DNA of 64,000 nucleotides from Amoebophrya sp. A120. Taxonomy: Eukaryota > Protista > Dinoflagellata. The position numbers were made by a program, and so were the translations under genes. Shown here in pieces: positions 6,701-59,953 of this stretch (within the stretch, counting starts at the first letter, position 1; each line of letters starts with the position of its first letter). The stretch lies in contig CAJINV010000011.1 of assembly GCA_905178155.1 (NCBI GenBank), forward strand, positions 1,139,982 through 1,203,981, in the 5' to 3' direction. The notes below the pieces were generated by a model, which was not told where the DNA came from, ran no database searches, and saw nothing but the letters and a program-made list of their open reading frames with translations.

Positions 6701-9700
6701 TAACATTTCTCCGCGCACTGGTGGAGCACAAGTACAACAGGACTATCAGAATCAGCAGCGCGGGAACTTGTACACAGCAGCAGCACCAGCAGCTTCTCCT
6801 GGGGACCAAATCATTTCAAAAAAGTGCTCTGGCGGTGCTTCCGAGCAGTTTCTTTACCTCATCGAGCGAGGCGTCGTGGAAGTTTCCCTGAAAGGCCACG
6901 TTCTCAAACTCTGCGGCCCCGGAAAGTCGCTCGGGGGGCAGCTGGCACTCGGCTTCGTGACGCACAGCCACCTGTTCACGTACCGTGCGAAAACGAGGGA
7001 CGTGCGGCTTTGGAAGCTCAGTCGTCAGCAGTTCGACGCGATTGGCACTCCGCAACAGCGAGACTTGGTGCGCCGGAATTTCCTAGCCGAACTCAAGTCG
7101 TACCGGTGGGGACTCAACGCTGGGGCGGCGGCCACGGTCGCAGCCAATAGTAACGCGCATCAATTTAACCTTCCAACAGGTGCGGGCGCATTTCTACGAC
7201 ACCGTGGTGGGGGTGGAACAGCGAAGAGTTCCGGCGCGACTGCATATAATTCCTCTCCGAACAAGATCCATGCTAGCAGTTCCGCTTCCAACCTGGGTTT
7301 GGACAGCGCAGTACCAGCTGCGTACAAGTCCTTTTTTATGCTGAATCAACAAAACACAAATATCGGCGTTTCTGGCAATCCGCAGCTTCCGTCGACGCCG
7401 CGACGGCAGGCCATTCAGCCCACAATGCTGCAGCAAAATTCAGAAAACGTACTAGCGGGACTGAACGTCAACTCGGGAGGTGGAATGATGTCATCATCTC
7501 CAATGATAGCCAGTCCCTTAGCCAAATCGCGCTGGAAAAAAATCTCTTCCGCCATCCAATTCGTCGAACAAGCTAGGAACAGTTCCTACTTGCATCTGGA
7601 AGCACCAGGAGCAGCAGGACCAGCAAACGGGGCGTCGATGAATTCCCCTACCAAACGCAAACCGAGCAACTCTTCTACCGCAGCAGACTCTTTCTCGTCG
7701 AGAGACTCTTTCCCGAAGCCTATTCTAGGGAACCCCAATCTGAAGATCTTGAACGAGGGCAGCGACGGTCGGTTTTTGCTTTCCTGTTTGTCCAAATTGC
7801 GGTTGGTTTTGCTGAAAAAGGACGAAGTGTTAATCACGGAACATGTTGGCCAACATCAGTTCAGAGGAAATCGGCCGTGGACGAAAACTACAAGCAGGAC
7901 GAATAAAAATCCTAGAACGTCCTCAACATCTGCATCTTCGCACTTTTCCTTGGGCATAGTTGTATCGAAGCAACCGACTAGTACTTCGCACATCAACAAC
8001 TTCCGCCCGTCATCAACAAATATCGGCGTAGGCAGCGTGTCCCTCGGTGCTGCTCCTTTGTTCGGAACAAATCATGGGGCAGCTAGAGGACCTAGCGCTC
8101 CTTCCTCCTCGTCCTTTACACCGCCAGCAACAACAGCCCAGATCATCATGCAGCGGAAGCGGCTCTACTTTGTGTACAGCGGGTCTTGCGGGATCTACGT
8201 CGGCGACAACCTGATCGACACGGTTCAGGATGGGGGTTGCATCGGGGAGTTTGTCCTCTGCGGGATCCAAAAGGAGTACGAGTACACGGTTGTTGCGCGG
8301 ACGGACTGCATTTTGTTTGCTTTGTCGCGCGAAGATTACCAGCAGCTGTTGAAGCGTTTTCCCTTGGCCAGAACCTTCTACGCGCAGCACATCGAGTCGT
8401 TAGAAACCGCACGGCGCGACTTCGTGCAGACCTTGAAGCGGCGGCCGCCGTTCCATTCTTGCAGCTACGAATTTTTGCAAGAGTTATCCTTCTTATCCGA
8501 ACGGATCGACTTCTCCCTGCAGAGCCCGCAGCCACTGACGGTGATCCCCCTGCCATTTCTTCGCAGAGGGGCGGTAATCAGTGCGGAAAGCGAATTCGAG
8601 AAAGGAAATAGTAATTCGTCTGCTGTTGGATCTAGCAATATCGCCGCGGCTCACTTTGCTGCAGCTGCAAGTAGTCCACCCGGGATGGGCAGCAATTTCG
8701 CAAGTGCTGCAAACGGCTACGGTAAGCCACTCTCTCCCCGTTCCAACACGTTCTTGCAGATCAATACTCTACTACAGCAAAGCGGTGGTCAAAAGTCCCC
8801 AACTGGGACCTTGCTCTCCACCGCGAGTACTCCGAAGTCCAGCGCGACGCTCAGCATTTTAACGACAAACAACCAAGTTGGACACCCGGGCAGTAAGTCC
8901 ACCAGAACCCCGAGTGGGAATTTCGTCAAAGGCGTCACTTTTTCGCAGTCGAGCAGCGGGTTACTGAGTAGCGCGTCCCCTTTACCTTCGCCACGGGGGA
9001 AAAAGAACGCCTCTTCCTGGTTGGAAGAGTCGTTTCAATACGATGAGGCGGAACTATATGGAACTGTCAGGATCGAAATCGTCAAAGTTGAAATGGTTTG
9101 CCATGCATAAAATGCATGACGCGAAGTACGTGCGTTGCAGAGCAGGCAAGTGAGGCCGATTGTAAACCTGTTTGGGTCAGAGCTCGAGCTGCTAAAGTAG
9201 CATGAGAGAGTCAGTCTTCTTTGCCTAAGCAGCATTACAAACTGGATTTAAGCACCGCCAAAATTTGTCATGCGCCACTTGGGAAATGGGTTCCAAGTCC
9301 AACTGGCATTCATTTTATGCATGACAAATCATTTCAACTTTGACGATTTCGATCCTGACATTTCCATAAACTAGCTGGTGTGAAGGAGGAATCCAGGTAT
9401 GCAAAATTGGTAAAGGCGAACGACGAAAACACCAAGTTGCTGCACTGCGCCGCCATGATCACGCACCCCCTGCAGCCGTGTGCCACGATCCACGCGGCCA
9501 AGTACTTTCAGAAGCAGGACCCGGGGGGCGGCTTTCTGGATCCGATGAACAGGTACAGAAAATGGGTTTAAAAACTTAGTTCTCCATCATCTACCGCAGC
9601 AGCCTATTTCATAACAGCGAGTTTGAGCCAGAGCCTGGTCGAATAATAATGGCGCAGATGCGGATCATTTCCCTCTTTATTCATTTTCATCCGATTCCAT

Positions 9701-58249: not shown

Positions 58250-59953
58250 ATGGTTTCCTCCTCCTCGCGCGGCAAACCTCCTCCATCCTACTACGAGGTC
58301 CTGGGTGTCTCTAAAACCGCCGACCCGAGCTCCATCAAAAAGCAGTACCGGAAGCTTGCCCTGCAGTTTCATCCGGACAAAAACAAGGGGAGTAAAAGTG
58401 CGGAGGAAAAGTTCAAGCAGGTTGCTGAAGCCTATTCAGTTCTGTCGGATGTGGAGAAACGAAAAGCCTACGACCACGCCTTGAACAACCCGGCATCACG
58501 CGCGCCACAGAACTTCACGCCCCCCGACGCAGATTTCCAGTACTGGGGGCGTGCGCCCGGGGAAGGACCTGGAGCGAACCCTTTCGGGGAAAAACCACGG
58601 TATCATGATGACCACGGCACTGGAGGTTGGACCGGAGGATCACAAGCTGGACCTTTTGGAGGTTCAGATCCATTCGGCGCTAGGTTTACGGATGATTTCG
58701 CGGCTTTTACTGGAAGTGGACAGCCGCACGGTAATATGTTCGGAGATCCCGACCCTTCGTTTTCGCAGCACTTCAACCGAGGAAATAGACAAGATAGCAA
58801 TTATCGCCACACGACCCGTGCAACAACTGACCACCGGCACAGTCAGGCGCGGAGCCTCCACCGGCCGCCACGCGGGGTACCGTGGCGCCCGCCCAGTTTT
58901 TCCCTTCGCGACGCCTACAATCTTTTCGACAGCATGTTTGGTGGGCACGATCCGTTTGACAATGGGTTCACGAATTTGAACGTAGGGGTGATGTCCAGTA
59001 CAACTTCTTCCCGGAACGCAATCGCCAACTCCGCTACCAATACCTCGTCCAACACTACCTCCTGGGACGTGAAAACGACAAAGATCAAAAAACCCGACGG
59101 CACTGTCATAATCGAAACCAGCCGCGTCTGCCCGCAAACCGGCCGGATTGAAACGTCGCGAAGGAGTGAGAGTGGTAATGGTGGTTCTACTGGCGCTGAG
59201 ACGAGGAAGAATTATCCACGCGAGCAGCAAGAGAAATACGACCGGAGTACTAGAACATCATTTACATTTGCCAACCCCAACGGTGCTGATGATTACAATT
59301 TTGGTGGCGCGAGCACCAGTTTCGGAGAAGCGTTCAGTGCAACCAGCAGGAGCTCCTTTCCAAGACACAATTTTTCAAGCTCGTCGAAGACGTCTTTTCC
59401 TGCGTCGCATCGTGGTGAGCAGCGCGCTGCACCGGTGCCGCCGCGAGAACGTGCTCTACTCGCGAACAAGCACCAGAATAGCAGCGAGGATACTTTGGAT
59501 TCCCTTCCCGCAGGGTACAATCCAGGCCGCTTGACCGCTGGTGCCGGAGGGGGTTCCTTCTCGCATCGCAGTGCTGGTGGTGGCGCGCAGATCGCACGTA
59601 GCAGCTGGGTATCAAATGTAAAAATGTCTGGGTCTGGAAAAATGCGCGATTTGTCATGCACCTTTTCCATGAGCCATGAGGTCTGGAATGCAGGACCTAG
59701 TATGACAGATTCTGTGCGATCTTTCTCATGCCTATCCTGCATGAGAAACTGCCTCCCGACTTGGTCAAAACTGGGCGACTTTTGGTAATAATGCAACACA
59801 GATTTTTGCATGCTTCAGATTTAGCATGACAAGTTGCATTCTTCCAGACCCAGACACTTTTACATTTGATACTGGGCCACGGCGGGCGGAGCCGCGGCGG
59901 CGGCGGTGCAGTCGGCACGGGGTGGCGCGTTTATCGGATGGAAATCAAACTGA
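58250..59953 (+). CDS. DnaJ/Hsp40 J-domain protein (DNAJB6-like layout), ~478 aa; exons 58250-59609, 59877-59953
   Basis: [34 protein letters not shown]-domain with HPD, followed by a G/F-rich region. Excising the TIR intron gives [29 protein letters not shown]. Confidence 0.9.
59610..59871. mobile_element. Introner-like TIR element (262 bp)
   Basis: 30-bp TIR TATCAAATGTAAAAATGTCTGGGTCTGGAA / TTCCAGACCCAGACACTTTTACATTTGATA (1 mismatch). Direct repeat CTGGG at 59605-59609 and 59872-59876. An empty-site copy lies at 61807-61900. Confidence 0.95.

Follow-up and report, generated by a model that had tools for sequence, protein, structure and literature searches.

Introner elements in coding sequence of the dinoflagellate Amoebophrya sp. 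A120: loss of element plus 5 nt from transcripts and a probable fixed register of the cut

The 64,000 nt of DNA analysed here (the window; Amoebophrya sp. A120, GenBank assembly GCA_905178155.1, contig CAJINV010000011.1, positions 1,139,982 to 1,203,981 of the forward strand) carry eleven elements that are located in coding sequence and flanked by 5-bp direct repeats, eight of them perfect and three decayed, just as a preliminary description of this DNA had reported. They are the A120 introner elements of Farhat et al. (2021; PMC7789003), and the class is already known, because it was described from this same organism. What can be added is that seven of the elements are missing from spliced transcripts, in the one run that covers them, together with exactly 5 nt of flanking sequence, and that the cut probably falls at a fixed distance from the element ends.

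Elements and their host genes

All eleven elements are given on the + strand. The first, at 9057-9368 (9052..9373 with its repeats), is 312 bp long with a 62-bp terminal inverted repeat (TIR) and a perfect flanking repeat, and lies in a gene for a cyclic nucleotide (cNMP)-binding domain. Four follow at 19317-19589 (19312..19594; perfect repeat, main family, right end ATC and not ATA), 19791-20069 (19786..20074; perfect), 20764-20972 (20759..20977; decayed, 2/5 identical) and 21929-22040 (21924..22045; perfect). A leucine-rich repeat (LRR) gene contains the element at 27161-27296 (27156..27301; decayed, 4/5) and a PPPDE peptidase gene that at 33609-33823 (33604..33828; perfect), beyond which lies 33927-34111 (33922..34116; decayed, 3/5). 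The remaining three, all with perfect repeats, are at 38270-38523 (38265..38528) in a TBC-domain gene, at 46110-47156 (46105..47161) in a TRAF zinc-finger gene and at 59610-59871 (59605..59876) in a DnaJ gene. The 38270 element belongs to the main high-copy family, and 19317, 38270 and 59610 are mutually related, the first and last being 69% identical in inverted orientation; very high summed depth on several elements indicates that they are repeated in the genome. The 1047-bp element at 46110 has TTA..TAA ends, an inner palindrome and a GC content of 68%, and is the exception among elements that otherwise have 33-47% GC against 55-62% in their flanks. Left ends are TAT in eight of the eleven, with TAC, TAG and TTA once each.

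A perfect repeat combined with arm complementarity of at least 17/22 was found at seven sites in the window and at none in each of 30 local shuffles. Relaxing the arm threshold to 13/22 gave an average of 6.2 sites in the shuffles, so the weak elements need separate proof, which the RNA contigs described below supply. The claim that all eleven possess TIRs is overstated: the arms of 27161 and 33927 match at only 9/20 positions ungapped, and the predicted hairpin of 33927 is no better than that of shuffled sequence (z -0.76; z is -3.2 at 20764 and -3.4 at 27161). Structure prediction pairs 11-20 of the first 20 nt of the left arm with the right arm in all eleven.

Removal from spliced transcripts

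Contigs of run X3 skip all seven elements in the interval 19200-34300, by 278, 284, 214, 117, 141, 220 and 190 nt in order of position, each exactly the element plus 5 nt, so that one copy of the repeat is kept at every junction, as the preliminary description had anticipated. X3 is one sample that is not on record as RNA, and its RNA or cDNA status is our guess; we treat it as cDNA because its contigs skip GT-AG introns, seven of which are missing from the same contigs. The loss of element plus 5 nt from spliced transcripts is thus seen directly for seven elements in one run.

No cut equivalent across the repeat yields GT-AG or GC-AG at any of the eleven elements, as had been claimed, and the GT/GC..AG borders of U2-type introns are accordingly lacking. 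Frame-preserving GT/GC..AG pairs within 12 nt of 19791, 20764 and 33609 go unused in the spliced contigs, and all seven elements are skipped there; use of nearby GT-AG sites or retention of the elements was to have counted against the original proposal. The same genes also contain nine canonical GT-AG introns on the + strand (19029..34672), with donors at 19029, 20147, 20523, 24649, 25895, 27439, 29239, 30542 and 34544, deduced from seven direct joints, one loose end and one case of contig arithmetic. Elements and canonical introns do share genes, as stated earlier, whereas the statement that the elements are the more numerous fails where RNA allows a check (19.0-34.7 kb), with nine GT-AG introns against seven elements. 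All nine of these RNA-backed donors are GTA, in an organism whose U1 snRNA was not found (PMC7789003).

The four elements outside this coverage are supported in other ways. Database protein P0001, whose source name is Amoebophrya sp. A120, is 100% identical over 99% of the query to an exon of the 43.8-51.0 kb gene, and P0001 and P0002 are joined as predicted across 46110 and 59610 respectively; these proteins may derive from the same RNA data. At 9057 and 38270 removal is deduced from the reading frame only, no protein spanning either having turned up in the protein searches. Among offsets of +3 to +6 only +5 connects the two long frames at 38270, and at 9057 both +4 and +5 allow one downstream GTA..AG intron, +5 doing so with an ordinary CAG acceptor. 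If retained, the element would shift the frame or introduce a stop at nine of the eleven sites; 21929 and 27161 would be in frame and stop-free, so that frame restoration is no test there, and 21929 is skipped nonetheless. The earlier view that removal restores frame and conserved motifs in all eleven is overstated; a conserved motif was seen to be restored in one case, the LRR at 27161, and several junctions lie in low-complexity sequence.

The preliminary description left open whether removal takes place at the RNA or the DNA level. In ciliates, internal eliminated sequences (IESs) are bounded by TA and leave one repeat behind when they are excised, and the TA-bounded ends and single retained repeat seen here resemble them; IES-like elimination in a transcribing life stage is nevertheless very improbable. 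At a depth of 43-46, contigs of the DNA-like run X1 continue through introns and between genes, and the elements at 20764, 27161 and 33927 lie within unbranched X1 contigs (2.1, 11.6 and 4.5 kb) at the depth of their flanks, while skips are confined to contigs that also lack GT-AG introns. No empty junctions occur at contig level in X1, which is one DNA-like run of unknown stage, possibly the one from which the assembly was built, and whose contigs drop rare variants. Raw-read runs X9 and X10 yielded just 3 and 4 reads, and a set of 15 of 370 joints contained no element skip but also missed the real skips of X3, and is no evidence of absence. Removal at the RNA level is therefore supported, and elimination from DNA is not.

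We extended the analysis to a second assembly, one public contig set that does not overlap the window and may not be from A120. The main TIR pattern matched 152 loci there (621.5 kb with overlaps), and 316 TAT..ATA pairs were found without use of the repeat. An exact 5-bp duplication flanks 202 of the 316, a 4-bp one four and a 6-bp one none, which shows that 5 bp of the target are duplicated on insertion. For 5 of 290 junction queries a paralogous site was recovered that is empty and has the 5-mer once. An RPB1 gene (L069 1343-11767 and L072 5533-6497) contains at least nine TAT..ATA elements, one of which duplicates the codon of yeast Rpb1 K830. Of 40 mismatches between repeat copies, 23 are at third codon positions (p=0.0014). 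Two tandem paralogues (L007 and L008), 78-94% identical, differ in the presence of elements at several sites and, being recent duplicates, point to recent gains. At L062 6001-7031 an element with a perfect repeat encloses a second (6329-6608), a nested, twintron-like arrangement.

The anatomy of repeat-flanked hairpins is also the textbook signature of falsitrons (PMC10275267), and the skips are observed in cDNA contigs only; reverse transcriptase could have switched templates at the elements, in which case the genes would be broken or the elements retained. We regard this as the most improbable of the explanations considered. The skips are exact (+5) where microhomology amounts to just 1-2 nt and the hairpin is weak, and nine of the eleven elements would shift the frame or introduce a stop if retained. 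The elements in RPB1, the empty paralogous sites and the excess of third-position mismatches, which coding selection on the joined sequence would be expected to produce, together make both template-switch artefacts and pseudogenes unlikely.

Position of the cut and mechanism of excision

Perfect repeats hide the position of the cut and decayed ones reveal it, so the register can be read from the three decayed junctions, which belong to elements of three different types. At 20764 (joint 20760>20975, with two ambiguous bases) 2-4 bases of the repeat stay with the left exon, at 27161 (27159>27301) 4-5, and at 33927 (33925>34116) likewise 4-5; of the registers thus allowed, {2,3,4}, {4,5} and {4,5}, only 4 is common to all three. 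In this register, 4|1, the intron takes in 1 nt upstream of the left TIR and 4 nt downstream of the right one and has the form N-TAT...ATA-NNNN. Ten of the eleven introns then begin N-TA, while all nine canonical donors begin GTA; GT starts three of the eleven and AG ends none. From these three junctions the cut is probably fixed at register 4|1.

We favour, at about an even chance, removal of the elements at this register by a relaxed U2/U6 spliceosome that is guided by the transposon ends. A U2/U6 core is preferred because +2 U/+3 A are still present in the donor as mapped, because the rest of the spliceosome is reported to be present in A120 (U2, U4, U5, U6 and nearly all spliceosomal proteins were found, and U1 snRNA was not; PMC7789003), and because there is a precedent in Fritillaria, whose introns with TIRs and target-site duplications (TSDs) are spliceosomal (review PMC11282704). 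In such a scheme a short TA-ended transposon, mobilized in trans by a DDE transposase of the integrase type, would insert in a coding exon and duplicate 5 bp of the target, and the element plus 5 nt would be taken out of transcripts by cuts lying 1 nt outside the left end and 4 nt outside the right. The element's own TA would provide +2 U/+3 A as in GTA donors, and the paired arms, or protein bound to them, would substitute for recognition of G+1 and AG; set against a separate enzyme, this combination seems to us somewhat the better bet. Since both ends bear the same signal, an element landing either way round, at nearly any place in an exon, would remain silent, and this would account for how the elements have spread. 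No orientation bias was present in 157 oriented elements of the second assembly.

Several observations weigh against this interpretation. The register was read from three junctions in a single run; the probability that three random cuts agree on some register is 0.31, and that they agree on register 4 it is 0.056, a cut at the TIR edge is excluded at one junction only (20764), and 46110 would begin G-TT. A spliceosome would usually profit from G+1 and AG, and the lack of any AG or G enrichment in 114 oriented perfect target sites (AG at positions 3-4 eleven times and AGG three times, approximately as base composition predicts) therefore tells against its involvement. The strand caller that oriented these sites was confident and right on eight of the eleven window elements and confidently wrong on none. 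TIR positions 1-3 and 11-13 are conserved and positions 4-7 variable at both ends, and the equal conservation of TAT at the two ends is accounted for by the needs of a transposase without any role in splicing; no asymmetric decay of the 5' versus the 3' TAT was seen among the few events available. A codon-based test of the register on 32 decayed elements of the second assembly was flat, and mutation direction and codon likelihood had no power as indicators in the same 32. The nine top A120 sites in Table S4 of PMC7789003 all have +2 T, and this we rejected as independent support and do not count, because a simulated aligner sliding toward GT/AT..AG/AC largely reproduces the pattern (+2 T in 4-7 of 9); the simulated ratio of N-T-AG to G-N-AG, 1.3-2.0 against a published 2.0, does not discriminate either.

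The same small sample leaves some room for RNA-level removal of element plus 5 nt in which the cut floats within the repeat or differs by family, with no single ruler. The chance agreement of three informative junctions calculated above, the published account of splice sites that vary in position with respect to the hairpin (PMC7789003), and the third-position mismatches at repeat positions 1-3 (16 of 22, against 7 of 18 at positions 4-5), which look as if both copies were sometimes coding, would all fit. We nonetheless consider it unlikely, given that junctions of three different element types agree and that variable published borders are to be expected from aligner sliding in perfect repeats.

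A more serious competitor, still less probable than the relaxed spliceosome, is the second removal pathway of the preliminary description: a non-spliceosomal RNA pathway, with a structure-guided endonuclease and a ligase as in Euglena, that would set its cuts by distances of 1 and 4 nt from the foot of the stem formed by the TIRs, the match of TA to GTA being a coincidence of transposon ends. We know of no enzyme for such a pathway, which counts against it. The indifference to junction sequence in the 114 targets, the neglect of nearby GT/GC..AG pairs, and the predicted arm pairing in all eleven elements, which would hide the donor and branch region, speak in its favour; so do the Euglena code, likewise built on a stem whose spacers are of unequal length (N3 and N5-6; PMC12501133), and the release of Euglena introns as circles (review PMC11282704). 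Against it, the shared register coincides exactly with +2 U/+3 A, 33927 is spliced although shuffled sequence folds about as well, and the Euglena CAG..CTG motif is absent from the elements. A second splicing system, independent of the canonical spliceosome, ignoring junction sequence, silencing any insertion and convergent with that of Euglena, is possible but doubtful, and one relaxed spliceosome fits at least as well, since the N-TA starts match the GTA donors.

A fixed register for these introns would be an addition to the published account, the class itself being known from this organism. It is not stated in the literature searched, whose full reach excludes some figures and subscription papers that may hold it, and the parts seen of PMC9860276, PMC13326754 and bioRxiv 2020.10.14.339549 do not discuss Amoebophrya borders. 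If it is true, borders published as variable and unknown become one rule that makes correct annotation possible, the signal is likely to be +2 U/+3 A plus TIR geometry, and a transposon can turn into an intron wherever in an exon it lands, with no GT or AG supplied by the target. The RPB1 gene would be a good test gene for splicing assays. Overall, the oddity is an established one, and the register is a modest clue to its mechanism that can be put to the test directly.

Origin and relation to known systems

Within the frames and ORFs searched, the elements have no coding capacity. No autonomous copy was found (among the 30 longest pairs of the second assembly only the nested L062 element exceeded 500 bp with a perfect repeat, most others looking like mispaired neighbours), no integrase domain was detected in 100 of 218 long ORFs of its loci, and viral contigs gave no TIR match. 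The constant TSD (exactly 5 bp in 202/316) and the single-copy empty sites are those of miniature inverted-repeat transposable elements (MITEs).

The element at 46110 stands somewhat apart. It folds as a single very long hairpin, and its ends fit the motif published for Amoebophrya A25 (TTA plus two purines) and not that of A120 (PMC7789003). It has no Pfam match, no integrase domain occurs in five of its frames, and its end sequence is not found among the 152 loci. The TRAF genes at 43842-51034 and 52107-57626 are tandem paralogues, 36% identical, and only the first has the element, the second lacking it at that site. An Rfam search gave no match. Elsewhere in the window, a perfect 21-bp inverted repeat with a 1-nt loop lies at 63092-63134.

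The preliminary description rightly called the class not new and its excision machinery unresolved; in saying the same of the mobilizing enzyme it was partly outdated. Mobilization by an integrase-type transposase is suggested by the element ends and by a published candidate, A120 introner family 38 (Gozashti et al. 2025; PMC12130899, Dataset file 8), which has integrase-like ORFs and is listed as Ginger. Family 38 resembles the window elements as a TIR DNA element with a 5-bp TSD, TA/TA termini and non-canonical borders, and differs in its length of ~810 bp and its ORFs, the likeness being drawn from its description and not from TIR sequence. In 41 of the 58 A120 rows of that file the mechanism assigned is mixed and no fixed register is stated. 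IS3EU/GingerRoot elements share the TA..TA termini and have integrase-type DDE enzymes, but their TSD is usually 6 bp (4-5 bp in Ginger2; PMC10045372) against 5 bp here, with no exact 6-mer among 316 pairs.

The closest relatives remain the A120 introners themselves, with which the elements share the host, the TAT-type TIR ends, 5-bp direct repeats, repetition in the genome and, in the seven of seven covered by RNA (four lie outside coverage), non-GT-AG splicing. In A120, about 65% of 66,565 RNA-supported introns are non-canonical, and introner ends start with TAT followed by 7 variable nt and an A-run (PMC7789003). That paper reports direct repeats of 3-5 nt (5 bp in the example of the Fig. 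S19 legend), describes splice sites whose position varies with respect to the hairpin and a border that is 'unknown', and rules out mobilization by a transposase, whereas the TAT..ATA elements here show a strictly 5-bp duplication and an apparently fixed cut. Nonconventional introns of Euglena are likewise without GT-AG, have paired ends with unequal spacers, occur alongside canonical introns and are probably of MITE origin, but in an unrelated lineage and with a CAG..CTG stem and spacers of 3 and 5-6 nt in place of TAT..ATA and 1 and 4 nt (PMC12501133). The non-canonical introns of Fritillaria borealis and the introners of Micromonas, Aureococcus and Polarella are also TIR/TSD transposons turned introns that keep one repeat, and they carry or co-opt fixed dinucleotides (an AG acceptor, or AG-AC/AT), whereas neither end of the elements described here needs a dinucleotide from the target.

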